In this document: positions 1-63,928 of the stretch, piece after piece
How positions within the stretch are numbered: the first letter of the stretch is position 1
Layout: each line of letters opens with the position of its first letter
Origin: a virus
Reading direction: 5' to 3' (one strand)
IMG/VR virus record: IMGVR_UViG_3300045988_184227
DNA: 64,000 nt
Notes under the pieces: generated by a model
Databases searched by the model: none
What the model saw: only the letters and a program-made list of their open reading frames with translations
What the model was told of the DNA's origin: nothing
Translations under genes and position numbers: made by a program

Positions 1-331
1 TAGTTGCCAACTTTACAAGCAAAGCTTGACGGTAATGGTATCACCGTTGGTTTAACGTTACCTAACGAAACAGTTTAGTTGTCCTATTTAGGACGGTTAA
101 AGGAGCGTACCCTTTAACCCTTACAGTCGCCAACTGTAAATTTTCTCTAAAATGTCTCAACTTCGTTTTACCCAACGAACGTTTTGCTAATAGTGTAATT
201 TCCGTGGAGACTTCGGGTACGTATTACAAAATTAGCACGGCTATTATGTATTTCCCCCGCAATAATAGTTATTAGATTGGTTTAAAACCAATCTCAAATA
301 CCACTTCCTTAACGAATAAGGCTTTGGGCTA

Positions 332-405
332 TCGAAGTTAAAGGATTTGAACCTCTGACCCTCCGCTTATCAAGCGAACGCTCTACCAGACTGAGCTAAA
401 CTTCG
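332..405 (-). tRNA. tRNA-Ile (anticodon GAU)
   Basis: Minus-strand cloverleaf. T-loop GGTTCAAATCC. Acceptor CGAAGTT/AACTTCG. Anticodon loop TTGATAA. Confidence 0.8.
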
Positions 406-450
406 TTTGTTGTTTCGGTTTGAACCGAAACAAATAGTTAATTACTAGGA

Positions 451-714
451 TTAATCATCCCAATAATCGTTCCAGTAATAATCGTCCCAATCATCATCAG
501 AACAGGTGCAACCACAACAGGTGCAACAGCCACAGTCGTAACTATCGCTCCAGTAATCGTCGTCATCATCCTGATCACCATCGTCGTCAGTATCATCATC
601 ATAAATAGGCTCGAAAGTTTCATCGTCCGGATCGAACGAATAATTACAACCACAAAATTCTGATGTACCGCATTCAAGACAAATTTCGTCTTTATCATTT
701 TCAAAATTATTCAA
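451..714 (-). CDS. Small, very acidic Cys/Asp/Trp/Tyr-rich protein of about 87 aa. The tail reads DCGCCTCCGCTCSDDDWDDYYWNDYWDD.
   Basis: GGAGGTGG lies 8 nt upstream of an in-frame TTG. The composition is extreme. The reading frame overlapping a tRNA was trimmed. Confidence 0.35.
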   Translation of the reverse strand: MNNFENDKDEICLECGTSEFCGCNYSFDPDDETFEPIYDDDTDDDGDQDDDDDYWSDSYDCGCCTCCGCTCSDDDWDDYYWNDYWDD

Positions 715-765
715 TATATCCACCTCCAATATATTAACACAATGATGGATATTGAAATATTGAAA

Positions 766-839
766 TCGGGAATGTGGGGTTCGAACCCACAACCTTTTGC
801 GTATGAGGCAAGTGCTCCACCAATTGAGCTAACTCCCAA
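766..839 (-). tRNA. tRNA-Met/fMet/Ile2 (anticodon CAU), copy 1
   Basis: T-loop GGTTCGAACCC. Anticodon loop CTCATAC. 1-72 U.G wobble. Confidence 0.75.
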
Positions 840-1172
840 AGTTGTAGCCGGAAGGTATTGCGCCCCACCTTCACACTTTTCACAGCCGCTCCGCAGCCAT
901 ACTACAATATATTCTTTGATAAACTATTTCTAGCATTACCAAAAAGATAAGCAGACGCCACCCTGCTTCAAGTGGCCGTTCTCTCGGTTATCCAATCCCA
1001 TAAGGATCCGAGCGTCTTGGCATTAGGCGGATTTATTGATTCAAGATTTTCACTTTTGGGCGCCCACAAACGCCCCTCTCTGTCGATCTATGGGCTAGAC
1101 CAGCGACCTTTGTTACAACTCTGGTAGATCGCCTAGAGTTTGTTTTTGGCGTGGAACAAACTTAACCAGAAA

Positions 1173-1247
1173 TCGGAGTTACAGGATTCGAACCTACGAC
1201 CCCTCGCTCCCAAAGCGAGTGCTCTCCCAAACTGAGCTAAACTCCGT
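1173..1247 (-). tRNA. tRNA-Pro (UGG)
   Basis: Acceptor CGGAGTT/AACTCCG. Anticodon loop TTTGGGA. T-loop GGTTCGAATCC. Confidence 0.85.
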
Positions 1248-1268
1248 AAAATTTTTATTGACTATATA

Positions 1269-1700
1269 TCAAAGATCCTTTAAGTCATAAGAAATATTGC
1301 TTCTAAAACCATAAATATATTTTTTGTTATTTTTCCAAAAATTGTTATCGAAACTTTTCTTAATCAGATCATTCAATTTGTAATCAAGATATTCAACAAT
1401 GAGGTTATCTAAGACAGATAATTCATCTGTATATTCGAATTTGCCAATGATTGGTGCAGATCTAAAAATTTTAAATCTATCATAATGACCTTTTGTGCTA
1501 GGGCCGTAAGCCCATACAAGAAACTGATCATCGTAAATTTCTCTTAAAGTTTTGTAAGATAATATATCTTTATCTCGAGATTCCTTCAAAACAAAGTACA
1601 TAACTTTTTGAAGTTTTAAATTATTTATAGATTTTTGATTTTTTTGAGCTACTGATAAAATATGATCAGCTAACAAATTCATTGACATTTTCATAATCAA
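1269..1700 (-). CDS. Panacea/DUF4065-domain protein (GepA/SocA-antitoxin-like)
   Basis: Contains the LKLQKVMYF...WAYGPS motif typical of DUF4065. The CTGAATTTATTTCAG palindrome sits in its leader. It is embedded between tRNA-Pro and tRNA-Ala. Confidence 0.5.
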   Translation of the reverse strand: MIMKMSMNLLADHILSVAQKNQKSINNLKLQKVMYFVLKESRDKDILSYKTLREIYDDQFLVWAYGPSTKGHYDRFKIFRSAPIIGKFEYTDELSVLDNLIVEYLDYKLNDLIKKSFDNNFWKNNKKYIYGFRSNISYDLKDL

Positions 1701-1769
1701 ATAAACCCATTGAAATACTTTCTATCTGAAATAAATTCAGCATTTTTATTTTCTGTTTTTATTTCAGAA

Positions 1770-1843
1770 TGGAGCTTACAGGGTTCGAACCTGCGACCTT
1801 TTGCGTGCAAGGCAAACGCTCTCCCAATTGAGCTAAAGCCCCA
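1770..1843 (-). tRNA. tRNA-Ala (UGC)
   Basis: 5' GGGGCTT with G3.U70. Anticodon loop CTTGCAC. T-loop GGTTCGAACCC. Confidence 0.85.
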
Positions 1844-1998
1844 ACTAGAGTTCACCAAACTCTGCGATCCGACGGATACCTACTAAAAAGTAGGGATTCT
1901 GGTGTTTACACCTATCTTCTATTAGCTCCGGAACAGCTTTGGGCGAATGCCCTGTTATTTTTAAAGAGGATAGAATCCCCGGGTAAATAACTGACCCA

Positions 1999-2072
1999 AT
2001 GGACCTTGCAGGACTTGAACCTACGACCACTCGGTTATGAGCCGAGAGCTCTGACCAACTGAGCTAAAGGTC
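1999..2072 (-). tRNA. tRNA-Met (CAU), copy 2
   Basis: Acceptor GGACCTT/AAGGTCC. Anticodon loop CTCATAA. T-loop GGTTCAAGTCC. Confidence 0.8.
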
Positions 2073-2195
2073 CTTTTATCAGAGGAACGTTTTACTTCGT
2101 TGTAACAAATTTGTGATACGTACTGTTGTTAGGCTTTCTTGCCCGCACCACACAATTTATCTTAACCAACAAAACCATTCCTCTTGTAACATCTT

Positions 2196-2269
2196 ATAGC
2201 CTCTACCGGGTTCGAACCGATGACTTCTTCCTTGTAAGGGAAGCACTCTCCCAACTGAGTTAAGAGGCT
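2196..2269 (-). tRNA. tRNA-Val (UAC)
   Basis: Acceptor AGCCTCT/AGAGGCT. Anticodon loop CTTACAA. T-loop GGTTCGAACCC. Confidence 0.8.
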
Positions 2270-2441
2270 ATTTTTGTATGAATGATACCCCTTTGCAGAC
2301 TAACCAATGTCTGCTAGTTAGGTATCACTCTTACATAAAAGGTTAGCTAATACCGAAGAAGTATTAGTTATGACTTACTACACCTATTCGAAATAGTAAG
2401 CCGAGTTGCATTGAATTATTTCAAATGCAATCTTTTCGACA

Positions 2442-2515
2442 ATGGATCTTGTAGGGCTCGAACCTACGACCCACAGATTAAGAGTCTGTTGCTCTGCCAA
2501 CTGAGCTAAAGATCC
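2442..2515 (-). tRNA. tRNA-Lys (CUU)
   Basis: Acceptor GGATCTT/AAGATCC. Anticodon stem ACAGA/TCTGT with loop CTCTTAA. T-loop GGTTCGAGCCC. Confidence 0.75.
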
Positions 2516-2560
2516 AAATATCAACTTGGTCATTTTAATATTTTTATTTTCAATAAACCT

Positions 2561-2589
2561 ATTATAGCGCATTAATATTCAGATGTCAA
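2561..2589 (-). promoter_or_regulatory. Sigma-70-like promoter (TTGACA, 17 bp, TATAAT) for tRNA transcription, with an upstream A-tract UP-like element
   Basis: Minus-strand reading is TTGACATCTGAATATTAATGCGCTATAAT. It is preceded by AAAAAAATAAAAAAAC and GTTATAATAGTTTA, as in the second copy at 6086-6160. Confidence 0.7.
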
Positions 2590-2645
2590 CTAGTAAATCA
2601 ATGTTTTTTTATTTTTTTATCTATAAACTATTATAACATCAAATT

Positions 2646-2672
2646 CAAATAAAAAAGGGGACGTTAATCCCC
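2646..2672 (-). terminator. Rho-independent terminator after the SPFH gene
   Basis: GGGGATTAACGTCCCC hairpin followed by a T-run on the minus strand. Confidence 0.7.
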
Positions 2673-2678
2673 TTGATA

Positions 2679-3530
2679 TTATTCTTGTTTTGTGATAACA
2701 CCGTTAGCGCCATTAACTGTAACCCAACCGTGTTTTTCACGGGCTTCGGCTTCTTTCATCCGAATAAGGTTATCCGTGATAGAGTCTGACTTAATCTTAT
2801 TAGATTTAGCTTCCCCTTCAGCTTTGATGATTGCTGTATCAGCTTCAGCTTGAGCTTGAACTTTTTTAGTTTCAGCCTCAACCTTAGATTTCTCCTGCTC
2901 TTGTTTAGCAGTGTCGATTTCTTTTTGTTTAACCGACTCATTCTTAATAGCAGCTTCGATTTCATCACCAGCGTCCTGATCCGTAATCGTGAATGATACG
3001 AACTCAAGACTATAAGACTCGAATTTTTCTTTCAAAGCCTTGTCAATTGCCTCGTAAACTTCTGTACGTTTAGCACCGAGGATATCGTAGATATCATAGT
3101 TACCAGTTACAGATTCGATAGCACGTTGAACTGCTGGCGAAATGACATTATTATTAACGTTCTCAAGATCTGTATAGTTTGAGAATACTGTCATAGCTTT
3201 CTCTTTGTTGATCTTGTACTTAACGTCAATGTTAGTGTTAAGCCACTGACCATCCTTAGTTTGAGTGGTCAATTTCTCCATTGTTTTTGTCTGAACTGAC
3301 GTTGGCAATGTATACACCTTGTCGGCGAACGGAACCAAGAAATGATATCCGGTTTGGAGAGTTGTCTCCTGAACGCCACTAAAGGCGCTAACCTTAACTC
3401 CAACTGTGTTAGCCGGGATACGTTTTACAGCTGTAACACGTACAAGCACTGCCCCCAAAAAAGCAAGAAAAAGAATAATGGCGATTTTCACACCTTTGGA
3501 AATTTCGAATTTTTTTAAGTCTTCTACCAT
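2679..3530 (-). CDS. SPFH/band-7 (prohibitin/HflC-like) membrane protein
   Basis: N-terminal TM helix, SPFH-like core and an Ala/Glu/Lys-rich coiled-coil tail. The promoter and GAGTCTTTTGACTC palindrome plus SD lie at 3545-3586. Confidence 0.65.
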   Translation of the reverse strand: MVEDLKKFEISKGVKIAIILFLAFLGAVLVRVTAVKRIPANTVGVKVSAFSGVQETTLQTGYHFLVPFADKVYTLPTSVQTKTMEKLTTQTKDGQWLNTNIDVKYKINKEKAMTVFSNYTDLENVNNNVISPAVQRAIESVTGNYDIYDILGAKRTEVYEAIDKALKEKFESYSLEFVSFTITDQDAGDEIEAAIKNESVKQKEIDTAKQEQEKSKVEAETKKVQAQAEADTAIIKAEGEAKSNKIKSDSITDNLIRMKEAEAREKHGWVTVNGANGVITKQE

Positions 3531-3679
3531 ATAAGACTACCTTCTTTCTATGAGTCTTTTGACTCGATTTTTATTTAAATTATAGTAATTTTTATAAATT
3601 TTGGATAATAAAAAAATAAAAGCGATACTGTTATTTATAATTTTATTGAAAAGTTAAAAAATAAGAAAGAAGGTTAATA

Positions 3680-3997
3680 ATGAAAATTAAAGATTTATTA
3701 AAAGATTATCTTTGTGAAAGTTGTGATATCTTAGTTCAATTTGAAATTTATCAATTTGATGATATTTTTGGTTCCTGGGAAGTAGATTTACAAGAAACGT
3801 ACAAACTATCAGAGCTTTTGGGCGATACTGTTAAAAATAGCTTGATTCGTTCCGAAGTACGTGAAATATTAGACTCTAATATCATAGATTACTTTTCAAA
3901 AGATAACTCTGATGATCTTACGATTTGTATCAATGAGAATTTTGAATATTTTGGAAGAGAAGTTCAAGGGATCAAAATTACAAAATATGATAATTAA
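3680..3997 (+). CDS. Hypothetical protein
   Basis: RBS AGAAAGAAGG. TATAATTTTATTGAAAAG motif upstream. Terminator hairpin at 4027-4060. Confidence 0.5.
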   Translation: MKIKDLLKDYLCESCDILVQFEIYQFDDIFGSWEVDLQETYKLSELLGDTVKNSLIRSEVREILDSNIIDYFSKDNSDDLTICINENFEYFGREVQGIKITKYDN

Positions 3998-4658
3998 AAT
4001 CAATAAATAAGTTTTTAAGATAAAAAAAGAGCCCGAAATTATCGGGCTCTTTTATGTTTTTAAGCTACTTCTTCTTCACTCGAAGGAAAACAAAATTTTT
4101 AAACCAAAAATTTCAAAACCCCAACCTATTCCCGCTAACGGGCTGTCTCAATTCAGGAGGTTACCCCCAGCCTATATTATTCACGTTGGTTATAGGCAAC
4201 CCTACCGTTTCGGCTTTAGGAACGGAAAACCCTAGTCCAGTTTCTCTGGCATATCCATCCACCCAAAAGGTACAATGTAAGCTTTTATTACCTGTCGACT
4301 TCCGACTTGCTAAAAGGCTTTTTGTTACATACATTATATTAATCCTTTTCGTGTTTTTAAAGTACGATGGCAACTTTCAAATACCCCAACCCATTTTAGA
4401 GTAATTGAGTTAAACTTCTATCGAAACTTTCCTTTTGAGATAGCAATACTCGGATTATTACGATTAAAATTTTAACTTGTTTTTGGTTTGAATCAAACCG
4501 GGAAACTCCTTTCGGATAAAGCAAATAGAAATTCCTTCTTTGGATTTTTTTTTGCTTTGGAATCAATTATAGATTCTTTTAAAAATGAAAACAAAAAAAA
4601 TCGAAACAAAGTTCGAAAGTTTTTTCGTATCAACAAACTGAAATAAATACAGGTAAAA

Positions 4659-4733
4659 TAGCTCCTACTGGATTTGAACCAGTGACATCTTCCTTGTAAG
4701 AGAAGCGCTCTACCAACTGAGCTAAGAAACTAA
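4659..4733 (-). tRNA. tRNA-Val (UAC), copy 2
   Basis: Anticodon loop CTTACAA. Acceptor has two G.U pairs. T-loop GGTTCAAATCC. Confidence 0.7.
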
Positions 4734-4781
4734 AAAAATACCCCGATGGTCAAAAGAAGGAAAGAATGACCATCAGGGCGA

Positions 4782-4853
4782 CAGACGATACCGGACTTGA
4801 ACCAGTGACATCGGTTTTGGAGACCGACATTTTGCCAGTTAAACTAATCGCCT
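4782..4853 (-). tRNA. tRNA-Trp (CCA)
   Basis: Anticodon stem TCGGT/ACCGA with loop CTCCAAA. Acceptor AGGCGAT/ATCGTCT. T-loop GGTTCAAGTCC. Confidence 0.75.
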
Positions 4854-4892
4854 ATAAAACGGCTCCCAAAAGAAGGAAAGAATGAGAGCCTA

Positions 4893-4966
4893 AAGGGATG
4901 GTGGGAATTGAACCCGACGAATGTAGGCGTGAAAAGCCTATGCCTTAGCCACTTGGCGACACCCCC
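4893..4966 (-). tRNA. tRNA-Glu (UUC) candidate with a weak T-stem
   Basis: Anticodon stem TAGGC/GCCTA with loop TTTTCAC. Acceptor pairs with two G.U. The T-stem has only 3 clean base pairs. Confidence 0.5.
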
Positions 4967-5268
4967 TTAATAATCTCACCAAATAACTACCATCCGCAAC
5001 AAATCAAGGGCTGATAATTTAAATATATAGTGAGAATTTTAGTTTTTATAGGTTTAAAAAACTAAACATTATAATAATTTTTATATCCCCATTAATAAAC
5101 AGTGAAATGGGGAATCGAACCGTCAGTCAAAAATGCGAAAAATAACACAATTGACATTCCCATCTTGAGCCAAATTTCGCAGAAGCTACTATTTGTTTGA
5201 TATACTCATAAATTTTCAGGGCGTGTAGATTTAAGTGGTTCGGCTTTACGGCTGACCTACCACTAAAA

Positions 5269-5341
5269 CGGTGATACGGAGAATCGAACTCCGGTCTCTC
5301 GGTAGACAGCCGAGCGCACTAACCACTGTACTATACCACCA
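5269..5341 (-). tRNA. tRNA-Asp (GUC)
   Basis: Anticodon stem CTCGG/CCGAG with loop CTGTCTA. Acceptor GGTGGTA/TATCACC. T-loop GAGTTCGATTCTC. Confidence 0.8.
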
Positions 5342-5384
5342 TAAACCCGGCAACCAAAAGAAGGAAAGAATGGCTGCGGGCAAC

Positions 5385-5456
5385 CGGGCGGGTAGGACTT
5401 GAACCTACGACACAGGGATCTTCAATCCCCTGCTCTACCAACTGAGCTACCACCCT
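5385..5456 (-). tRNA. tRNA-Phe (GAA)
   Basis: Anticodon loop TTGAAGA. D-arm AGCTCAGTTGGTAGAGC. T-loop GGTTCAAGTCC. Confidence 0.8.
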
Positions 5457-5987
5457 TGAAACACCAGGATGTTTTTCCTACTCGACTTAGCGCTGCAAAC
5501 TATTAAGGTTACACGCTGACTAGGAATGGCCCCGGTTTGCAACTCCGGTTGACCTAGCCTTTTTAAAGCGTGGGAAGTATCAACAACCCCAACTCAAACA
5601 AGCACCACATAATAGATTTTTTTACCCATACGTAAACGTTATATCCAACGTAGATTTTGCCTGAGTGCCTCCGAAAATCTTATAGTTACGTTACCGCAAC
5701 ATCAACTACAATCGCATTGTTCGACACACAACTTTGGTTCCCTAAGTGTCACCTCAGATTCACTGTTGCGGCCAGCTATAGGACGAATCCCGTTCACTGA
5801 CACTTGTTGCGACGATTCGCAGAGCACCTTGTTTTTCGCACCGTCTCGCAAATTATCTCAGCCTGAACCATTTCACCGGTCTCCACTCTGGAACAATAAT
5901 AGTAAAGGTATCCCTATACCACAATTGCAGGTCTTAACAAGATAACCCAGGCACCACTTGCTAAGTGGAATTATGCCCTTTGGTGTA

Positions 5988-6062
5988 TTCGGGGAGTAGG
6001 ATTCGAACCTACGGCCTTTGGAGAATGAGTCCAACGAGCTGACCAGACTGCTCTATCCCCGG
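5988..6062 (-). tRNA. tRNA-Met (CAU), copy 3. It starts with C1-G72.
   Basis: Acceptor CCGGGGA/TCCCCGG. Anticodon loop CTCATTC. T-loop GGTTCGAATCC. Confidence 0.8.
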
Positions 6063-6085
6063 ATAATATTATAAAACTATCAAAT

Positions 6086-6114
6086 AGTATAAACTATTAT
6101 TTGAAATATGTCAA
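6086..6114 (-). promoter_or_regulatory. Sigma-70-like promoter (TTGACA, 17 bp, TATACT) upstream of tRNA-Met copy 3
   Basis: Minus-strand reading is TTGACATATTTCAAATAATAGTTTATACT. It is preceded by AAAAAAATAAAAAAAC and GTTATAATAGTTGAG. Confidence 0.65.
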
Positions 6115-6182
6115 TAGTTTTTTTATTTTTTTCTACTCAACTATTATAACGTATTTTTCTACAAGAAATAGTTGAGAAAAAG

Positions 6183-6272
6183 GATAGGGTGGGATTCGAA
6201 CCCACGGGTGACTTATTAGGCCACTGAACTGCTTTCAAAACAGCCTGCTTTTGACCGCTTGCATACCTATCC
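6183..6272 (-). tRNA. tRNA-Ser (UGA), long variable arm
   Basis: Anticodon loop TTTGAAA. 90 nt long with a long variable arm. T-loop GGTTCGAATCC. Confidence 0.8.
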
Positions 6273-6484
6273 ATTAACGGTGGTTTTATTTGGGATTCGG
6301 TCTCACTTCTCAACCACCAACCAATTTATTTGGCATATTGCACGGAAAACCCAACTTCCCTGTGCGCCAATTTCAGAACCTATGGGCGAACCATTCAACT
6401 AGTATAGTTCTGAAATTAAGATAGAGGGTGCGAGCCCACGACTTTAATAATTAAAGTCTGTTCTTCTAATCGAACATATCCCAG

Positions 6485-6574
6485 ACGGAGCAAGTAGGAT
6501 TCGAACCTACGCACGACATCTCTGCCGCCTAATTGTTTTCGAAACAAGCCTCTTAACCACTTGAGTATTGCTCC
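6485..6574 (-). tRNA. tRNA-Ser (CGA), long variable arm
   Basis: Acceptor GGAGCAA/TTGCTCC. Anticodon loop TTCGAAA. Near-identical backbone to the tRNA at 7937-8026. Confidence 0.7.
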
Positions 6575-6953
6575 TAACTTAAACTCCTAAAACTTTTAAA
6601 TTGCCACGCCCCTCGGCAATTTGGTCAAACCAATTTCACCGGTTTTTTAACGTGGTTGATGACATCCACAGGGCGTATCGCAGACCTAAATCCACGATGA
6701 TAAGTTGTACGGAGTGAGCGTGATCAGGGCTCACTAGACAAACTCGCTTTCACGAGAAACAACCTTTCATTATTGACGATCTTGGGCACGTAGTCGCAAC
6801 TGAAACAATCACGTAACTTCGGGGTTGATAGTCCCTACTGAAATTATTTCAGCTGAGTTGGAACTTTTACAGTTCCAGTAAAAGGGTGAGGATGATCAGC
6901 TCTCACTAGGAAAACTCGTTTGCACGAGAAACAATAATCGATCATCAATAATG

Positions 6954-7026
6954 AAGCGCAGTACGGGAATCGAACCCGTGTCATCAGTTTGGAAGACTGA
7001 GGTTTTACCATTAAACTAACCACGCA
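6954..7026 (-). tRNA. tRNA-Gly (UCC)
   Basis: Anticodon stem TCAGT/ACTGA with loop CTTCCAA. T-loop GGTTCGATTCC. Confidence 0.8.
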
Positions 7027-7139
7027 GATCGCTGTCGTCACAGCGTTATCAAAATTTTTATACAATCATTAGGATAAAAATTTTCAGCAACTACAACTCT
7101 TTCAAGCTGAGTAGTTAACGTGAGCTGAAACATATCCTA

Positions 7140-7220
7140 TCCCCAGCGCAGGACTTGAACCTGCACGATAAAAATCGCAGAGGCTTAAACTCTGTGTGTC
7201 TGCCATTCCACCAGCCAGGG
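7140..7220 (-). tRNA. tRNA-Leu (UAA), long variable arm
   Basis: Anticodon stem CAGAG/CTCTG with loop TTTAAGC. Variable arm CGAT/ATCG. T-loop GGTTCAAGTCC. Confidence 0.75.
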
Positions 7221-7222
7221 TA

Positions 7223-7297
7223 CTGAGAGAGTGGGACTCGAACCCACAGCCTTCCGGTTAACAGCCGGGCGCTCCACCATTGAGCTATCCCCCATCA
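7223..7297 (-). tRNA. tRNA-Asn (GUU)
   Basis: Anticodon stem CCGG/CCGG with loop CTGTTAA. T-loop GGTTCGAGTCC. Confidence 0.75.
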
Positions 7298-7305
7298 GTA
7301 TGAAA

Positions 7306-7390
7306 ATGGAAGCGGTAGGATTCGAACCTACGAACTCGAAAGAGAGCAGGGTTACAGCCTGCCGTGTTTAACCAGCTTCACTACACTTCC
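7306..7390 (-). tRNA. tRNA-Tyr (GUA), long variable arm
   Basis: Acceptor GGAAGTG/CGCTTCC. Anticodon stem GCAGG/CCTGC with loop CTGTAAC. Confidence 0.8.
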
Positions 7391-7441
7391 AAAATATTCT
7401 TTTACTATTATAGCACTTTTTTTATCAAATGCAAGATAGTA

Positions 7442-7516
7442 ATTCTCAGAACAGGGTTCGAACCTGTGCGTTACTGGATTCAAAGTCCAGTGCCTTACCA
7501 ACTTGGCTATCTGAGA
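7442..7516 (-). tRNA. tRNA-Gln (UUG)
   Basis: U1-A72 acceptor TCTCAGA/TCTGAGA. Anticodon loop CTTTGAA. T-loop GGTTCGAACCC. Confidence 0.85.
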
Positions 7517-7520
7517 TTAA

Positions 7521-7595
7521 ACGCACCCTGAAGGAATTGAACCCACAACCTTTCGGTTCGTAGCCGAACGCTCTATCCTGTTGAGCTAAGAGTGC
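7521..7595 (-). tRNA. tRNA-Arg (ACG)
   Basis: Anticodon stem TTCGG/CCGAA with loop CTACGAA. Acceptor GCACTCT/AGGGTGC. Confidence 0.75.
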
Positions 7596-7634
7596 TTATA
7601 TATTTTATTATACATCTTTTTATAAGAAGAGTAG

Positions 7635-7710
7635 GGCGATCGACAGGACTCGAACCTGCAATAGACGGATTCACAGTCCGTTGCGTTTTTCCGTTTTCGC
7701 CACGAACGCC
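7635..7710 (-). tRNA. tRNA-His (GUG) with genome-encoded G-1
   Basis: Anticodon stem ACGGA/TCCGT with loop CTGTGAA. An extra 5' G pairs with discriminator C73. Confidence 0.75.
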
Positions 7711-7936
7711 AAAATGATTTTGAAATTTGTGTGGAGTACGATTCCACGATGTTCCCGGCGATCACTCTAGTATGATCTCTATCGATTCATCCAAACGGGA
7801 ACTGTCACCAAGTAAGCGAAGATGAATTTCACATACATCTCAACCAAAAATTTCAAAAAATATACGTCGGAGTCCGCAGTTGCAACCGTAAGCGGATACT
7901 CCAGTAACCCCTCGATCACTGTCCACGATTTCGGAC

Positions 7937-8026
7937 TACGGAGAGAATAGGATTCGAACCTACGCACGACATTTCTGCCGCCTATATGTTTTCCAAACAT
8001 ACCTCTTAACCACTTGAGTACCTCTC
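7937..8026 (-). tRNA. tRNA-Ser (GGA), long variable arm
   Basis: Acceptor GGAGAGG/TCTCTCC. Anticodon stem TATGT/ACATA with loop TTGGAAA. Confidence 0.75.
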
Positions 8027-8201
8027 CAAAGTAAAGGTTTGCCACATCACTATATACTATTATATAGCAATATAATCCGTGGCAAACCCTTTAAAATAAT
8101 GCAAGCTATAAAAATTCAAAAATGCAATTATCAATTTGCCGTTTGACAATAACAAGTCTATCACAATATTTTTAGCTTGTCAATACTTTTTTAAAAATTT
8201 T

Positions 8202-11200
8202 TTAATTTTTATCGAAAAGATGTGCTACTGGATCTTTTTCAGATAGAGTTTTGTACTCATCTTCGCTAATTTGAGTCATTAAGAATACTGGTGATACTGG
8301 GCGTGTATTACCATCACGATCCTTATAGTATTTCAATCCAGTTCCATAACCAGCCTGGATGTAGATGTAGCTTCCATCAGGGACAGACTCTTCAAGCAAT
8401 AAATCCGTCAATCTATTTTCGATTTCCGACACAATATTACGTTCAACTGGACGACCACCAAGATCTAAGTTTTGATTTGATAAATACCAAGGGCTTGATA
8501 ACAACCAAGCTACGTCCAATTCTGGTGGTTCAGCTTCACGGAAAACTTCGTGTGTTTTTTCAGAAAAAACTAACTTGATATTTCGTGATTCTTCTAATCG
8601 TTTTGCTAAAGATCTAAGTTTCAAGTTGGCAATCATTTCCAATTGATGACGTTGAAGTTTATAGAATGTGATAATGCCGCTCAAACGGTTTACAAATTCT
8701 GGACGGAATCCCTTACCACCACGTTCGGGGTCGTGGTTTTTTAATTGTGAAACGATTTGTTCCATTATATTTTTAGGTAATTCACCACTTTCTGGATCAC
8801 CGTTACGCAAAATCATTTGCGAAGCAATATTTGAGGTTAGGATGATAATTGTATTTCTGAAGTTTACAACTTCCCCCCGTGCGTCTGCAACCTCACCTTC
8901 ATCTAATACAGAAAGAAGTGTATCCCAAATACCGGGAAATCCCTTTTCACACTCGTCGAATAGTAATACTGAATAAGGATGTTTTTTTACAAACTCAGTC
9001 ATTTCTCCACCAGCGTCAAGATCGTTACTCTCACCTGGAGGTGAACCGATAAGACGTGCAACTGATGATGGAGCTTGTAATTCCCCACAGTCAAAACGTT
9101 TCATCGCACCCTCATCACCGAACATAACTTCAGCAATAGCTTTAACCAACTCTGTATTGTGTGTAACCACATAATTTGTTCCGGCTAGGAATAGGTGTTC
9201 TTCGTTGTCTACAAGAATACAGATAGCTTCCTCTGAATTTAATTCAGGAATAATGCTTGTAATCTCTAGGAATTTAATACTATCCTTATAAGGTGAAATT
9301 CTTGGAATTTTTACAAAAACCTCATCTTTTTTAACCTTTTTGCCAAAAAGATCAAAGACCTGTTCTCTTGACTCGTAAAAGACTTCTAGTGTGAACTTGT
9401 CCAATTGTTTTGTTGAAATTCCCATCGAAAACAACATTTCACGAACATCAGAAACAAGCTGTTCTTTTTCATTTGCTATAAACAATAGCTTCTCTGGATT
9501 GTTTTCATCGAAGGTTCCGTAATGATCAAATGCACCTCGAATAATATCTCTTCGTTGACTAAGATTTGTAGTTTTCAACGCTTTTGTGATATGCTCAGTT
9601 CTACTTCCAATAGCAAAGTATAGAGATTCCACATCTTTCATAGTACCATCATCAAACTCAACCGCACCATTGTTTGGTATAAAGAATTTTGCGTTTGGAT
9701 CTTTATCCTGTTCTTCAAGAATTTCAGCTACGGTTAGATTTTCGATATCGGAATAATCCGAAGAATTTGATCTGACCACACCGAAAATATGTTCTTTATC
9801 GGCAGGAAGCGATCTTCCGTCTGAAATATTTACAGAAAAGAAATTCCGTTGTCCTTGCGGGAATACACCCTCGATAGTTGTAGGTTTACCAGTTCTATCG
9901 AATACACGATCACCAACTTTTAATTTATAAAGTGGAACAAACCCCCTATCTGGTGTTGGAATCAACTCAGAAGCTCTGAGAGCCTTACCCACCCCTGAAG
10001 GCCCAAGGAAAATAAAAGAACCGATAGGTTGTTTTGGATTTGAAATTCCCAAACGGGAACGTTTGATTGCATAAGTAACAGCTTCAATTGCGTGTTTTTG
10101 ACCAATTACACGTTTTGATAGTTTTGAACTCATTGATCGCAACCGCTCAATCTCACTTTTTCCGATTTCTGAAACCGGGATACCGGTTGTTGCTTCAATT
10201 GTTTTTTGAATTTGACCGGAATCAACCACATCCTTAATCATCAAGTTTGGTTGATTGTAGTATGTATCCTTGAATTTCTCTAAATCAACTTCAAATTGGG
10301 CAATACTTTTTGCTAATTTTGATATCCTTGACTGATCAGCGTGCTCTCCTTTACTTTCTTCAGTAGCTAACTGGTTCTCTAATTGTAACAGTTGTGAGCG
10401 TTTTTTTCTTAGGAACTCTAAAGCCTCTTTTTGAACTTCCCAAATTTTCACTTGTTTTTCAAAAAATGGTTTTTTAAAGTTCAGTTCACTCTCTAGTTCA
10501 GAACGGATTTCAGGATCCGTTTCTAACTCATAATCTTTTTCCAATACAAAAATTTCACCCTGCAACAACACCAAATCTTTTGGCATAGCGTCAATTTCCA
10601 AACGTGTCATAGCACAAGCCTTGTCTAGAATATCAATAGACTTATCCGGATTTCGTCTGCTAGGTAAGTATCGAATACCTAAATCAACTGCTGCTTCAAT
10701 TGCTTTATTATCTACAGTAACACCGTGGAAAACTTCCAGGCTACGTTTACGTGATTTTAAAATACGAATTGTAGAATCACGCTTCAATTCATTAACAGTT
10801 ACACGTTGAAAACGGCGAACAAGTGCCTTGTCACGTTCAATATACGTGTGATACTCTATATCTGTCGTAGACCCAATCATTCTAAGTTTACCACGTGCAA
10901 GAGCCGGTTTCAATAAGTCACCAACATCAAGTTCGCTCTTTTTATTCAAAATAACGTGAGTTTCATCTACGAACAGAATAATTTTACCATCATTCTCAAC
11001 TTCTTCGATAATTTTTTTCACTCGATAACGATAACCACCGTCACTTTCGTCCTTACTTGATAAACTAGGAATGTCCAATTCCCACAACGAAAATCCTTTT
11101 AATGATGGAGGTACAATATTTAAGGCAAGAGCCTGTGCGAGCCCTTCTACAATTGCGGTTTTACCGGTTCCGGCTTCACCAACAAGAATACAGTTATTCT

Positions 11201-11396
11201 TGAATTTTTGTACAATAATAGACAACAGATCACGTGTTTCACTGTCACGTTCGAGAATGGGTGAGAAATCATCACTTGCTCTATATCGTGCCGTGATATC
11301 AAAGGCAAATTTGCTAAGAAATTCCTTACCTTTATCTGAATCAACTGCTGTATTATTTTTAGTTATATTTTTCATCTCTTTATTTAATTCAGGCAA
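8202..11396 (-). CDS. clpB: ClpB-like two-domain AAA+ chaperone carrying an intein in NBD2
   Basis: Walker A GEAGTGKTAIVEGLAQ in NBD1. RGKLRMIGSTT and ALVRRFQ motifs. NBD2 reads GPSGVGK-[276 aa]-TELVKAIAE. SVARLIGSPPG, YSVLLFDECEK and GFRPEFVNRL motifs present. Confidence 0.85.
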   Translation of the reverse strand: MPELNKEMKNITKNNTAVDSDKGKEFLSKFAFDITARYRASDDFSPILERDSETRDLLSIIVQKFKNNCILVGEAGTGKTAIVEGLAQALALNIVPPSLKGFSLWELDIPSLSSKDESDGGYRYRVKKIIEEVENDGKIILFVDETHVILNKKSELDVGDLLKPALARGKLRMIGSTTDIEYHTYIERDKALVRRFQRVTVNELKRDSTIRILKSRKRSLEVFHGVTVDNKAIEAAVDLGIRYLPSRRNPDKSIDILDKACAMTRLEIDAMPKDLVLLQGEIFVLEKDYELETDPEIRSELESELNFKKPFFEKQVKIWEVQKEALEFLRKKRSQLLQLENQLATEESKGEHADQSRISKLAKSIAQFEVDLEKFKDTYYNQPNLMIKDVVDSGQIQKTIEATTGIPVSEIGKSEIERLRSMSSKLSKRVIGQKHAIEAVTYAIKRSRLGISNPKQPIGSFIFLGPSGVGKALRASELIPTPDRGFVPLYKLKVGDRVFDRTGKPTTIEGVFPQGQRNFFSVNISDGRSLPADKEHIFGVVRSNSSDYSDIENLTVAEILEEQDKDPNAKFFIPNNGAVEFDDGTMKDVESLYFAIGSRTEHITKALKTTNLSQRRDIIRGAFDHYGTFDENNPEKLLFIANEKEQLVSDVREMLFSMGISTKQLDKFTLEVFYESREQVFDLFGKKVKKDEVFVKIPRISPYKDSIKFLEITSIIPELNSEEAICILVDNEEHLFLAGTNYVVTHNTELVKAIAEVMFGDEGAMKRFDCGELQAPSSVARLIGSPPGESNDLDAGGEMTEFVKKHPYSVLLFDECEKGFPGIWDTLLSVLDEGEVADARGEVVNFRNTIIILTSNIASQMILRNGDPESGELPKNIMEQIVSQLKNHDPERGGKGFRPEFVNRLSGIITFYKLQRHQLEMIANLKLRSLAKRLEESRNIKLVFSEKTHEVFREAEPPELDVAWLLSSPWYLSNQNLDLGGRPVERNIVSEIENRLTDLLLEESVPDGSYIYIQAGYGTGLKYYKDRDGNTRPVSPVFLMTQISEDEYKTLSEKDPVAHLFDKN
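9156..9983 (-). other. Intein of 276 aa (Ala1, C-terminal THN, +1 Thr) splitting the ClpB NBD2 P-loop
   Basis: N-terminal ALRASELIPTPDRGFVPLYKL aligns to Hint block A. C-terminal ICILVDNEEHLFLAGTNYVVTHN followed by T. Excision restores GVGKTELVKAIAE. Confidence 0.7.
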
Positions 11397-15733: not shown

Positions 15734-16708
15734 TTATAAAAGAATTTTATTTTCAGCAATTCCAACTTGAACGTTTTTAATACCCAAATTAGGATCTTCG
15801 TTAGTTCGAATTACAAACAATCGACTTCCAGCAAAGCCTTTTGCAACTAGCTCATCGTATCCGATAATGATACACTGAGTTCCCGCATAGTCTGTTGTTC
15901 TACCAACAACTTCTGCTGTACGCTTGATGTGTGCAGTATCAGTTGACGTTTGCGCAATAACCATCAAGATTGGTAATGTTTGTTGGCCTAGTGGGTAGTA
16001 CTTAAGACCCGCTTTTGTTTCGTTGAATACACTATTAACTTTGCGTAGACGATCTGATAAATTAAGATCTTCGTATCCATTTTCAGAAATGAATCCAATA
16101 AAGTTAAGAGGTAAACTTCCCTCGTCTGGTTGAGCTAAAGAGAAACTAAAGTCTGTATCAACTTCAGTCTGACCGATACGAAATTCCGGATTTTCTTTGT
16201 ATTCACGAATACGAAGTTGTCTAAGATTACGAAACGCAATAACAACTTCACCTTGAACCAAGTTATTACGAACCACACGTGAAGATTTGAAGTAATCTGT
16301 GTATCTCCAGTTAGAAGTATCAACACCCTCGTAGTTCAATACGTAAATCCCAGCAAAATCAAGAACATAAATTTTCAGATCACTTTCTTTTGCAGAATAG
16401 TGTTCTTCCTGAAATTCTCCCAGTGTAAATACATTAAGATATTTCAATCTAACGAGTTCATCAATTGTTTTGTCAGAAACTTCCTTACCAATTCCACGAG
16501 AAATTTGATCGTGTGTTGCGAATCGAACCTGAAATACAAATTTAATCAACTCAACAACGTCACGACTGATTTTTCCGTCTTGCATTTTTCTTGCAATATC
16601 CACGTTTGCAACAGAACGGAATGAAAATCCTGGATTTTTAAATGTTTGAAATAGATTATCTTTGATTTTGAAATAATCAAGATTAATCTCAGATGTTTTA
16701 ATAGCCAA
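15734..16708 (-). CDS. Hypothetical protein
   Basis: Long ORF, no recognisable motif. Confidence 0.55.
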   Translation of the reverse strand: MAIKTSEINLDYFKIKDNLFQTFKNPGFSFRSVANVDIARKMQDGKISRDVVELIKFVFQVRFATHDQISRGIGKEVSDKTIDELVRLKYLNVFTLGEFQEEHYSAKESDLKIYVLDFAGIYVLNYEGVDTSNWRYTDYFKSSRVVRNNLVQGEVVIAFRNLRQLRIREYKENPEFRIGQTEVDTDFSFSLAQPDEGSLPLNFIGFISENGYEDLNLSDRLRKVNSVFNETKAGLKYYPLGQQTLPILMVIAQTSTDTAHIKRTAEVVGRTTDYAGTQCIIIGYDELVAKGFAGSRLFVIRTNEDPNLGIKNVQVGIAENKILL

Positions 16709-17731: not shown

Positions 17732-18886
17732 TTAGTTAGTGCGGAACATTGAAGGAATGCTATCCTCGAATGTTGGAAAATCATCTTCATTTGAACCTGT
17801 GTTGTTGCTTGATTCAGAATCAATATCTACAAATGTTGGAAGTTCATCTTCTTGTTTTGAATCTGTTTTTTCTGGCGTAGTCACATCAACAAATGTTGGA
17901 AAATCGTTAGATTGCTCTTGTTCTGAAGAATTGATTGTTTCATCCACAAAAGTTGGGGCTTCTTCAGCAATGTCTTTGGGTTTTTCCTCTTTTGCGATTG
18001 AAGCGCCTAGTCTATTTGTTCCAATTTTTGTTGCTTTCACAGGTTTACTTGTGTTTTGCTTAACTGTAGCCTTTTTTTCACTCTTTGTAGCTGCTGGGCG
18101 AAGCATATCTTTTTCGAAATATTTTTGATTTGGTGGTGTCATACGATCCTTTTCCTCGGAAACGATATATTTCGCAGGAACTGGTTCCTTAACAACTGTA
18201 AATGTATCACGAAGAACTTTACGTCCAGTTTCAACACCATCAGTATAAGTGATTTCGACTTTACGAACAGCCTTACCAGGAATACCTTCAGAAAGAAGTT
18301 GTTCTTGTACACCTTCCAATTCAGTATCTACAAGATGTTTTCTTTTTGGCTTAATAACCACTTCTTCTTCAATAGTTTCTTTTTTAATTTCTGGCTCTTT
18401 TTTAGTCGGAATATCTTTTTCTACCTTTTTTACAGGATCTTTTTTTGCAACAGGTTTAGATTTCACTTTTTTGTTGTTTTCTTCAATAGTTACATTTTTA
18501 TTTTCTGTAATATTAACAGCAGAAGCCGAAGGAACTTCACCTTTGTTCCCAGAACCAACAAAAGCGGCATTTAAGAGGTTACTTTGGTCGTGTAAATAAG
18601 CACCCAAACGAGGTCGACCTAGAACCTTAATGAATAAGTATGCAAGATCTAAATTTTCAACACCACCATTTTTACCAAGATCAATTAGAGTTGTTTGTTC
18701 AGGGAATTTTTTTCTAACGTTTGAATTTACAGTTTCTCCATTAGCAAGAAGAACTACATCTTCTGACTGGACAATTCTGTAATCCGTTAATTCCTTAACA
18801 CTTCTTGAATAAACAATTGAAAGTTCATCAACGAATGGTAGGGTTTTATTTAAAATATCTTTATTTTCTGTAATAATAAAAAGCAC
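17732..18886 (-). CDS. Hypothetical Lys/Glu-rich protein with an acidic tail carrying four copies of a (F/L/A)PTF(V/E)D motif
   Basis: The C-terminus contains APTFVDE, FPTFVDV, LPTFVDI and FPTFEDS. Confidence 0.55.
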   Translation of the reverse strand: MLFIITENKDILNKTLPFVDELSIVYSRSVKELTDYRIVQSEDVVLLANGETVNSNVRKKFPEQTTLIDLGKNGGVENLDLAYLFIKVLGRPRLGAYLHDQSNLLNAAFVGSGNKGEVPSASAVNITENKNVTIEENNKKVKSKPVAKKDPVKKVEKDIPTKKEPEIKKETIEEEVVIKPKRKHLVDTELEGVQEQLLSEGIPGKAVRKVEITYTDGVETGRKVLRDTFTVVKEPVPAKYIVSEEKDRMTPPNQKYFEKDMLRPAATKSEKKATVKQNTSKPVKATKIGTNRLGASIAKEEKPKDIAEEAPTFVDETINSSEQEQSNDFPTFVDVTTPEKTDSKQEDELPTFVDIDSESSNNTGSNEDDFPTFEDSIPSMFRTN

Positions 18887-63802: not shown

Positions 63803-63928
63803 AATAAGTACCAATCCTTTTTTATTTCTTTATCTATTATAGGTTAACGTATCAAGATATTTTGGGCGATTTTGAAAATTAAAAAAGATATCCAACTTGG
63901 ATACCTTTTCATAACTTAAACTTAGTTT

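Follow-up and report, generated by a model that had tools for sequence, protein, structure and literature searches.

A 64,000-nucleotide (nt) stretch of DNA from IMG/VR virus record IMGVR_UViG_3300045988_184227, called here the window, begins with an island of transfer RNA (tRNA) genes interleaved with conserved non-coding RNAs (ncRNAs), which was studied over positions 1-8200. It is probably the tRNA and ncRNA island of a jumbo-phage-like genome, in which the interleaved RNAs are released from polycistronic precursors by tRNA processing. The largest of them is a divergent ROOL RNA. Five further conserved segments are designated E1-E5 (Table 1): E1 and E3 can firmly be described as RNAs without a family assignment, E2 and E5 are probably the same, and E1, E2 and E3 are candidate new RNA families. 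Related loci and contigs, metagenomic and from IMG/VR, are given L-numbers; the closest of them, used for comparison, are L083, L086 and L094.

ARAGORN finds 23 tRNA genes between 332 and 8028, all on the minus strand (23 in 7.7 kb, about 3 per kb), in exact agreement with the number, strand and amino-acid set listed in a first-pass annotation made from the sequence. The Rfam tRNA model recovers 22 of the 23 at its gathering score and the remaining one, tRNA-Leu(UAA), at 43.4 bits. Relaxed ARAGORN runs with introns of up to 700 nt add only low-score noise. Most anticodons had been thought to begin with U34; the count is 9 of 23, a plurality, and the five tRNA species present for four-codon boxes all have U34. 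CCA is encoded by none of the 23 genes. The array extends past the left edge of the window, since relatives continue with tRNA-Leu(UAG) and then tRNA-Thr(UGU). No transfer-messenger RNA (tmRNA) was found in the window by ARAGORN or Rfam, the relaxed "permuted tmRNA" calls just spanning adjacent tRNAs; tmRNA is present in the distant relatives L092, L002, L005 and L007.

The spacers between these genes have a G+C content of 42-47%, whereas the AT-rich background of coding and intergenic sequence has about 26-30%, and no conserved open reading frames (ORFs) were found in them, as the first reading of the sequence had proposed. Their identity to L083, L086 and L094 is 77-98%. Third codon positions in the same comparison (ClpB, and the Band_7 and Panacea genes within the array) are 55-61% identical, and a gap of this size to synonymous sites a few hundred bases away is too large for neutrality, so that the spacers are, on substitution rates, under selection. 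The selected sequence could in principle be small proteins missed by the ORF listing, as several spacers allow ORFs of 40-116 codons and a small acidic ORF (see below) shows that small genes exist here. Every long ORF in 4020-4657 is, however, broken in relatives by frameshifting 1-nt indels, gene callers left the corresponding gaps of L083, L086 and L094 empty, and substitutions in E1 and E3 follow pairing and not codon periodicity, which makes hidden proteins hardly credible. An origin of the spacers as introns, also put forward earlier, fails as well: the segments lie between and not within tRNAs, all 23 tRNAs are continuous, and no intron was detected by intron-aware ARAGORN or by Rfam.

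Rfam scans of 64 kb and 9 kb seemed to return tRNAs only, the outcome that the first-pass annotation had itself set against its proposal of additional RNAs. This was a filter artefact. The spacers were rescanned one by one after the long scans, and a 561-nt stretch scanned alone recovers ROOL (Rfam RF03087; 88.4 bits, E=1.8e-18, model positions 3-574 of 574), which the Rfam speed filters hide in scans of 9-64 kb. The RNA is called a divergent ROOL subfamily because its score lies below the gathering threshold. It is closed by an outer helix ACACCA...UGGUGU. Across 28 homologues, 108 pairs are 98.8% paired and 70 of them are changed on both sides. The covariation score is 0.653, while shuffles give 0.26 and slid controls 0.08-0.13; the structure tested was an RNAalifold prediction on our own alignment, distinct from the Rfam consensus structure. 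Covariation was controlled by shuffled alignments (500 for E1 and E3) and by slid controls. Shuffle z-scores of the minimum free energy (MFE) are poor discriminators, ROOL itself reaching only z=-1.9.

A ROOL-homologous spacer is present in every syntenic lineage. A pattern made from two invariant ROOL blocks led to 37 further metagenomic loci, and 42 distinct ROOL sequences were gathered. The position relative to tRNAs is nearly fixed: ROOL starts 0-3 nt after tRNA-Met(CAU) in 37 of 50 copies and 24 nt after it in 3 more, and ends 5-9 nt before a tRNA in 48 of 50. Among GTDB genomes, the ROOL anchor matched three unrelated environmental metagenome-assembled genomes, taken as chance, and gave no host or prophage clue. 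Some distant relatives have two to three tandem ROOL paralogues spaced by about 800-1000 nt, namely L090 (15227-15642 and 16193-16666), L092, L158 (three copies), L134, L140, L143, L147, L150, L151, L159, L164 and L166. The tRNA-Met(CAU) that precedes ROOL in the window has the C1xA72 acceptor mismatch that is a hallmark of bacterial initiators; it is without the three G-C anticodon-stem pairs usual in initiators and has U, not a purine, at position 37.

Identification of ROOL changes part of the earlier picture, in which the structured RNAs among the tRNAs were left unexplained: the largest segment belongs to a known family with a published habit of occurring beside phage tRNA islands, and E1, E2 and E3 still have no Rfam match. 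GOLLD, group I introns, tmRNA, RNase P RNA, 6S RNA and riboswitches were considered as spacer identities and rejected for want of an Rfam match; for GOLLD (RF01998) there was none in any of the short-stretch spacer scans. E1-E3 also have no matches in GenBank phages. The window contains one copy each of ROOL, E1, E2, E3 and E4.

E1 follows tRNA-Ser(GGA) and is composed of a three-hairpin domain (E1a) and a tRNA-like cloverleaf (E1b). It starts 0 nt after a tRNA-Ser-type call in 13 of 14 copies and ends 6-8 nt before tRNA-His in all 14. Its 13 helices, which leave out an invariant 3-pair helix borrowing the last bases of the tRNA itself, comprise 73 pairs that are 96.4% paired in 11 sequences; 11 pairs are changed on both sides, compared with 3.8+/-1.2 in shuffles (0 of 500 reach 11) and 0-2 in slid controls. 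Five of the pairs changed on both sides lie in helices 2-5 of E1a, which is kept in 10 further loci. E1b has a four-way junction with an AU-rich acceptor-like stem (7-11 bp), an enlarged D-like arm and a hairpin resembling a T arm (GUGGA-AUCGUAC-UCCAC). Each of the three arms contains compensated pairs, and comparison with L005 and L007 gives 12 such pairs. There is no 7-nt anticodon loop on a 5-bp stem; at that position a 7-bp stem is capped by two small hairpins (about 38-46 nt). In the L005 and L007 homologues a canonical GGUUCGAGUCC T-arm is stacked directly on an 8-bp acceptor stem. These two homologues (L005 17689-18237, L007 9982-10529) are situated about 28 nt downstream of a tmRNA gene with the tag peptide AKQFAPVEMAA.

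The stretch 7700-7945 gave no Rfam family and no tRNA hit at E<=10, and no ARAGORN call even under relaxed settings with introns. A covariance model built from E1b (R1) found only its own family in 1.37 Mb, the next best hit being a real tRNA-Met at 18.9 bits, and an IMG/VR pattern scan for E1b returned only two contigs, both already known. Ancestry of E1b in a decayed tRNA is likely. For the spacers in general, an origin as pseudogenes left by turnover of the array was considered. The E1b cloverleaf with its T-arm-like hairpin, the R1 hit and the GGUUCGAGUCC T-arm would fit such an origin, as would a tRNA-shaped remnant at 6416-6483, the tRNA-5'-half-like sequences that follow TnpB elements in a relative, and the duplicate tRNA-Ser(CGA), a recent copy of tRNA-Ser(GGA) (85% identical; repeat family D9) that is present in L160-L162 and missing from L083, L086 and L094. 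The remnant has acceptor-like and D-like stems; its T arm is degenerate, and the position of the anticodon arm is occupied by an 8-bp hairpin with a 3-nt loop. It is conserved in six other loci, with no intact counterpart. Against this, ROOL, E2, E3 and E4 are without tRNA similarity, relaxed ARAGORN finds nothing credible in the spacers, and both E1b and the remnant are conserved well above the neutral level, the pairs of E1b being kept by compensatory changes. Decay is thus a highly unlikely explanation of the spacers as a class, and the description of spacers as tRNA-like, offered earlier as one guess, fits only the E1 cloverleaf and the remnant.

E3 has eight helices. It begins at the 3' end of tRNA-Pro, and its last element is a terminator-like hairpin (968-949) with a U run behind it. 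Its 51 pairs are 97.9% paired and 19 are changed on both sides, compared with 4.1+/-1.4 in shuffles (0 of 500 reach 19) and 0-4 in slid controls. It abuts a tRNA in 8 of 12 copies and is conserved in the lineage with a 67% identical ClpB (L088), where the neighbour is tRNA-Ala and not tRNA-Pro. E3 has no Rfam match, and its pattern is absent from IMG/VR.

E2 (253 nt, 95% column identity in 14 distinct sequences) starts 0 nt after tRNA-Gly in 15 of 16 copies. A 15-bp closing helix is predicted around several hairpins, and within it lie two copies of a module of about 50 nt (6714-6762 and 6886-6934, 84% identical; repeat family D13) that had been noticed in the first inspection. Each module has a GNRA-capped hairpin (GCAA, GAAA or GCGA by copy) and a hairpin with a self-complementary UGAUCA loop. 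The 77 pairs are 99.5% paired, 3 being changed on both sides versus 0.2 in shuffles, and the MFE z-score is -4.9.

E5 is the 5' part of a modular conserved RNA that is truncated by the edge of the window. Relatives have this RNA complete, at about 230-480 nt and extending up to tRNA-Leu(UAG); their copies differ in having or lacking whole modules. The segment is 98-99% identical to L083 and L086 despite far more diverged surrounding genes, and has 6 compensated pairs versus 0-2 in slid controls. A full copy in L086 (21379-21850) has no Rfam match. One 90-nt E5 module occurs near-unchanged in distant IMG/VR phages (L001 6142-6231, L005 12184-12273), directly after tRNA-Ser(UGA).

E4 is conserved and non-coding. 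Its identity over 4054-4657 is 85-86% to L083 and L094, the whole segment being absent from L086; 4020-4400 has 89% column identity in 11 sequences, and a near-invariant core (about 4265-4385) contains a promoter-like site at 4361-4333. The general claim of structured RNA in the spacers, made in the first-pass annotation, is upheld in part: covariation backs the folds of ROOL, E1 and E3, structure in 4054-4657 is unproven, and E2 agrees with a fold but varies too little for it to be judged well.

Promoters with UP-type elements had been proposed for the array, and three strong sigma-70-type promoters with A-rich upstream tracts are indeed present, at 8183 (P1), 6114 (P2) and 2589 (P3). P2 and P3 share a 40-nt A-rich upstream element (repeat family D10), and promoter-like sites exceed shuffle expectation. 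With strong terminators at 4053-4025 and 2674-2655, the first of which has a compensated stem change in relatives, the island is divided into a few minus-strand units. At least three promoters (8183, 6114 and 2589) would give polycistronic minus-strand precursors, P2 driving tRNA-Met, ROOL and the downstream genes. The tRNAs would act as punctuation. RNase P would cut at each tRNA 5' end, and an RNase Z-type cut after the discriminator base would free the 3' ends, the latter being proposed because no tRNA encodes CCA. Cleavage of CCA-less tRNA precursors by RNase Z is established for Bacillus subtilis. The same cuts would release ROOL, E1, E2, E3 and E5 with defined ends, E3 ending at its own terminator; E4 would remain as the 3' trailer of the second unit, and a TnpB right end has settled in the island at 5119-5266.

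The spacers could instead be nothing but signals for tRNA transcription and processing, conserved for roles in cis and not as independent RNAs. Promoters do lie in 6064-6180, 2517-2600 and 8029-8201, terminators at 4053-4025 and 968-949, and a promoter-like site in E4, itself conserved without covariation; short linkers such as 7026-7139 and 2074-2195 hold one or at most two conserved hairpins, in which 3 pairs are compensated versus 0-2 in controls. This reading is unlikely for the island as a whole, since ROOL is an independently recognised 524-nt RNA, E1 (13 helices) and E3 (8) covary throughout and are too elaborate for processing signals, and E2 extends over 253 nt at 95% identity. Pure cis signals account for the short linkers and perhaps E4, not for ROOL, E1 or E3.

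Mobile elements have also contributed. The stretch 5119-5266, missing from the earlier list of spacers, is a right-end element of TnpB (IS605 family). The repeat, of 150-185 nt, has 54 copies in 20 sources, with sharp conserved ends and different flanks at each copy; the window has one copy. For every gene of one TnpB family (at least 12 instances) it is found on the same strand about 45 nt past the TnpB stop. In relatives, TnpB genes are inserted within tRNA arrays and even within ClpB. Several right-end copies begin exactly at a tRNA 3' end, and in L086 (about 15915-15965 and 18660-18700) copies are followed at once by tRNA-5'-half-like sequence (GACGGTATAGCCAAGTGGTTAAG... and GACGGTTTAGCTCAGTTTGG...), which suggests that the element targets or disrupts tRNA genes. 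The only TnpB of the window (39858-41150, minus strand) has OrfB_IS605 and Cas12f1-like TNB domains, is of another family and has no adjacent right-end repeat. Debris of IS605/TnpB ends and miniature derivatives could be extended to the other spacers on the strength of these insertions, of insertion/deletion differences between lineages (3616-4726 and 6405-6700) and of an insertion at 2349-2441 shared with distant contigs. ROOL and E1-E4 are, however, single-copy, syntenic and fixed next to the same tRNAs, without the pattern of many copies in different flanks. Mobile debris explains 5119-5266 only, and is very improbable as a general origin.

Release of interleaved RNAs from tRNA precursors thus remains the preferred reading, and several points weigh against it. 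The ROOL match falls short of the gathering score (88.4 versus 99.1 bits); the query had been cut inside the flanking tRNAs, and the match was flagged for 5' truncation. The alignments behind E1 and E3 have little depth, with 11-12 sequences taken from related genomes, and kinship inflates the shuffle statistics, against which the slid controls partly guard. For E2 the data fit the modelled fold without proving it, as only 3 pairs are informative, and for E4 a fold is unsupported (4 covarying pairs versus 1.7 in shuffles and 0-3 in slid controls). Identity is patchy by lineage, 7026-7139 for example being 98% identical to L086 and 83% to L083; this shows recombination, which could locally raise apparent conservation. 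Co-transcription and release by RNase P and RNase Z are deduced from gene geometry only, and any function of E1-E5 is conjectural. No capsid, portal or terminase genes were identified in the window, and the genome is that of a putative virus.

Table 1. Features of the island, from high to low coordinates (strand -, minus; +, plus;., both).
Feature	Position	Strand	Basis
Promoter P1, TTGACA-17-TAGACT with TG, A-rich upstream tract	8155..8183	-	sequence
tRNA-Ser(GGA)	7938..8028	-	ARAGORN; Rfam 56.3 bits
E1a, three-hairpin domain from 3' end of tRNA-Ser(GGA)	7861..7937	-	helices 2-5, covariation
E1b, cloverleaf tRNA-like RNA	7717..7860	-	fold and compensated pairs
tRNA-His(GUG)	7634..7709	-	ARAGORN, Rfam
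tRNA-Arg(ACG)	7522..7595	-	ARAGORN, Rfam
tRNA-Gln(UUG)	7443..7516	-	ARAGORN, Rfam
tRNA-Tyr(GUA)	7306..7391	-	ARAGORN, Rfam
tRNA-Asn(GUU)	7223..7294	-	ARAGORN, Rfam
tRNA-Leu(UAA)	7140..7220	-	ARAGORN; Rfam 43.4 bits
tRNA-Gly(UCC)	6955..7025	-	ARAGORN, Rfam
E2, from 3' end of tRNA-Gly	6702..6954	-	conservation, fold
Hairpin-rich lineage-specific spacer between E2 and tRNA-Ser(CGA)	6575..6701	-	homologues
tRNA-Ser(CGA)	6486..6574	-	ARAGORN, Rfam
tRNA-shaped remnant	6416..6483	-	Rfam tRNA 16.3 bits, E=2.1; fold
Conserved spacer upstream of tRNA-Ser(UGA)	6273..6415	-	93% column identity
tRNA-Ser(UGA)	6181..6272	-	ARAGORN, Rfam
Promoter P2, TTGACA-17-TATACT	6086..6114	-	sequence
tRNA-Met(CAU), immediately upstream of ROOL	5987..6063	-	ARAGORN, Rfam
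ROOL RNA (RF03087), divergent subfamily	5462..5985	-	cmscan and covariation
tRNA-Phe(GAA), 5 nt downstream of ROOL	5384..5456	-	ARAGORN, Rfam
tRNA-Asp(GUC)	5268..5341	-	ARAGORN, Rfam
Solo TnpB (IS605-family) right end, omega-RNA-type element	5119..5266	-	repeat copies beside TnpB genes
tRNA-Glu(UUC)	4892..4967	-	ARAGORN, Rfam
tRNA-Trp(CCA)	4780..4854	-	ARAGORN, Rfam
tRNA-Val(UAC) copy 1	4658..4732	-	ARAGORN, Rfam
E4, conserved non-coding 3' trailer (proposed) of second transcription unit	4054..4657	-	conservation
Bidirectional intrinsic terminator, 12-bp stem, predicted end of unit begun at 6114	4025..4053	.	prediction
105-aa ORF, only in the lineage of the window	3680..3997	+	ORF listing
SPFH/Band_7 gene	2679..3530	-	Pfam E=7.5e-28; own terminator 2674-2655
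Promoter P3, TTGACA-17-TATAAT, 12/12 matches	2561..2589	-	sequence
tRNA-Lys(CUU)	2442..2516	-	ARAGORN, Rfam
tRNA-Val(UAC) copy 2	2196..2270	-	ARAGORN, Rfam
tRNA-Met(CAU)	2000..2073	-	ARAGORN, Rfam
tRNA-Ala(UGC)	1769..1843	-	ARAGORN, Rfam
Panacea (SocA-like) domain gene	1269..1700	-	Pfam, PHROG
tRNA-Pro(UGG)	1173..1246	-	ARAGORN, Rfam
E3, eight-helix RNA from 3' end of tRNA-Pro	945..1172	-	covariation
tRNA-Met(CAU)	765..839	-	ARAGORN, Rfam
Small acidic Cys-rich ORF	451..714	-	in-frame indels
tRNA-Ile(GAU)	332..405	-	ARAGORN, Rfam
E5, 5' part of modular conserved RNA, cut by window edge	1..245	-	conservation

Among the minor spacers, 6273-6415 keeps its identity over 10 distinct sequences with only 1 compensated pair. 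The spacer 6575-6701 was found in only 4 further loci (4 distinct full-length sequences alignable, window included) and occurs together with the duplicated tRNA-Ser(CGA). Directly 3' of tRNA-Lys, an insertion of about 90 nt (2349-2441, minus strand) with three hairpins, one of them with a UUCG loop, is missing from the closest relatives; in the distant IMG/VR contigs L002, L003, L005 and L007, homologues of it follow tRNA-Pro directly on the 3' side. No folding z-score is more extreme than the -9.1 of the whole spacer 2271-2441. A 25-nt motif (CATTCTTTCCTTCTTTTGG..., minus strand; repeat family D12) is present just 3' of tRNA-Trp (4744-4768), tRNA-Glu (4860-4884) and tRNA-Phe (5348-5372), and may be a shared processing or trailer signal.

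Four protein genes lie within the island. The Panacea-domain gene recognised in the first pass matches Pfam SocA_Panacea (PF13274) at 26.3 bits, just above the cut-off of 25.7 (E=1.5e-5), and phrog_1281 (E=3e-23), and has a coding-type substitution pattern. No toxin gene is adjacent: the immediate neighbours are tRNA-Ala and tRNA-Pro, with no second ORF and no PADLOC match. An IMG/VR search with it gave two distant hits only. The small acidic ORF, another early proposal, is a real gene, as relatives differ by in-frame 6-nt and 3-nt indels. Judged from the sequence, its start is likely the TTG at 714 behind GGAGG, and not 792, which overlaps a tRNA. It has no family match in Pfam or PHROG, nor has the 105-aa ORF, which is absent from L083, L086 and L094.

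The Band_7 protein is 82-88% identical on 80 IMG/VR jumbo contigs (L001-L080) with unrelated flanks, and the best GenBank DNA matches of the gene, up to 77%, are Streptococcus prophage genes. The pattern suggests that this one gene was transferred horizontally, and possibly that genes are exchanged in an oral, Gram-positive environment. The gene was rejected as an anchor for related islands, the 80 loci sharing only the gene itself. A second Band_7/flotillin-like gene is located at 58056-59540.

Outside the island, the AT-rich window codes for ClpB, GyrB, a RecD2-type helicase and G5/SSSPR-51 surface-type proteins, and otherwise mostly for ORFans. No GenBank phage is close to it. Homologues of its ClpB form a graded identity series (99, 83, 81, 67, 57-61 and 41%) on metagenomic contigs of 220-392 kb dominated by ORFans. 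Synteny is kept down to about 57% ClpB identity, and in such relatives the tRNA array is directly downstream of ClpB; in the 41% lineage (L096) no array was found there. As a single IMG/VR query ClpB returned nothing, and a ClpB alignment search gave only ClpBs of 30-41% identity. From these features we infer a jumbo phage or similar large element, and because of this jumbo-phage-like context the size of the array is not in itself unusual for its class.

The ClpB-like ATPase (8202-11396, minus strand) has, from its translation, an intein-like insert of about 245 aa within Walker A of the second ATPase domain (GVGK/ALRAS...VVTHN/TELV), and ordinary ClpBs match it by BLAST in two pieces. In the 81% lineage (L086, L094), a 2.3-kb insertion with a TnpB gene and right-end repeat also interrupts ClpB, behind about residue 221. 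Two paralogues of about 610 aa (41445-43271, plus strand; 61976-63814, minus strand) each have a G5 and an SSSPR-51 domain, which are characteristic of surface proteins in Gram-positive bacteria.

Few bacterial or phage RNAs without known function are as large as ROOL and GOLLD. The clade described here is unusually informative for ROOL, which is tRNA-fused behind a consensus promoter in large phage-like genomes from human-associated metagenomes, an arrangement from which precise RNA ends and a route of maturation can be predicted; the 42 distinct ROOL sequences form a diverse new alignment. The further covarying RNAs without a family, one of them tRNA-shaped, are candidates for new phage RNA functions. 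A bolder proposal, possible and still doubtful, is that E1, E2, E3 and E5 are new phage ncRNA families on a tRNA-fusion platform, each joined to one particular tRNA at its 3' end and freed by tRNA-processing enzymes, and that at least one of them acts on host tRNA-directed machinery or defence. The best candidate is E1b, which might, as a decoy or sponge, occupy a modification enzyme or a defence nuclease directed at tRNAs. The solo Panacea-domain protein might neutralise a tRNA-directed toxin, and E2 could self-associate via its two UGAUCA loops, as ROOL does. For annotation in general, the lack of an Rfam hit in a long window does not show that a family is absent, default filters having hidden a 524-nt ROOL in scans of 9-64 kb.

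In the tRNA cluster of phage T4, species 1 and 2 (rnaC/rnaD) are stable RNAs among tRNA genes that are co-transcribed and matured by tRNA-processing enzymes. These species and tRNA-like processing modules such as mascRNA would be the nearest precedent for E1-E3. The repeat at 5119-5266 shares with the omega-RNA or IS200-IS605 right end of TnpB its same-strand position 3' of tnpB, its sharp ends and its many copies; the window copy differs in being solo, and a guide role is putative. The omega-RNAs described so far mostly extend into the 3' end of tnpB, whereas homology among the copies of this repeat begins after the TnpB stop codon.

A tRNA array, as defined in Tran et al. (2015; PMC4758250), has at least 20 tRNA genes at a density of at least 2 per kb. 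By count and density the array in the window is of this published prokaryotic kind; it differs in lying in a jumbo-phage-like genome and in that four protein genes, together with some 3 kb of conserved ncRNA, interrupt it.

ROOL and GOLLD were reported in phages and prophages near tRNA islands and are possibly co-transcribed with tRNAs (Weinberg et al., 2017; PMC5737381). ROOL was found by cryo-EM to form an octameric RNA-only cage (Kretsch et al., 2025; PMC12286853), for which encapsulation within the cage has been suggested, and GOLLD env-38 is downstream of a tRNA-Met (PMC12286853). GOLLD, which occurs in phage and mycobacterial tRNA arrays, resembles the window ROOL as a large ornate phage RNA near tRNA islands with a place downstream of tRNA-Met, and is unrelated to the window spacers in sequence and fold. 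With published ROOL RNAs, 5462-5985 has in common the full-model match, the size (524 nt, the published average being 581 nt), a multi-junction covarying fold, the phage context and tRNA adjacency. Published ROOL forms the octameric cage; for the window copy such a cage is putative. Published ROOL lies "near" tRNAs; in the clade of the window it is fused between two tRNAs, with tandem copies in some relatives. ROOL beside phage tRNAs was thus already known, and the fusion of tRNA-Met, ROOL and tRNA, the tandem copies and the companion RNAs are a moderate addition to it.

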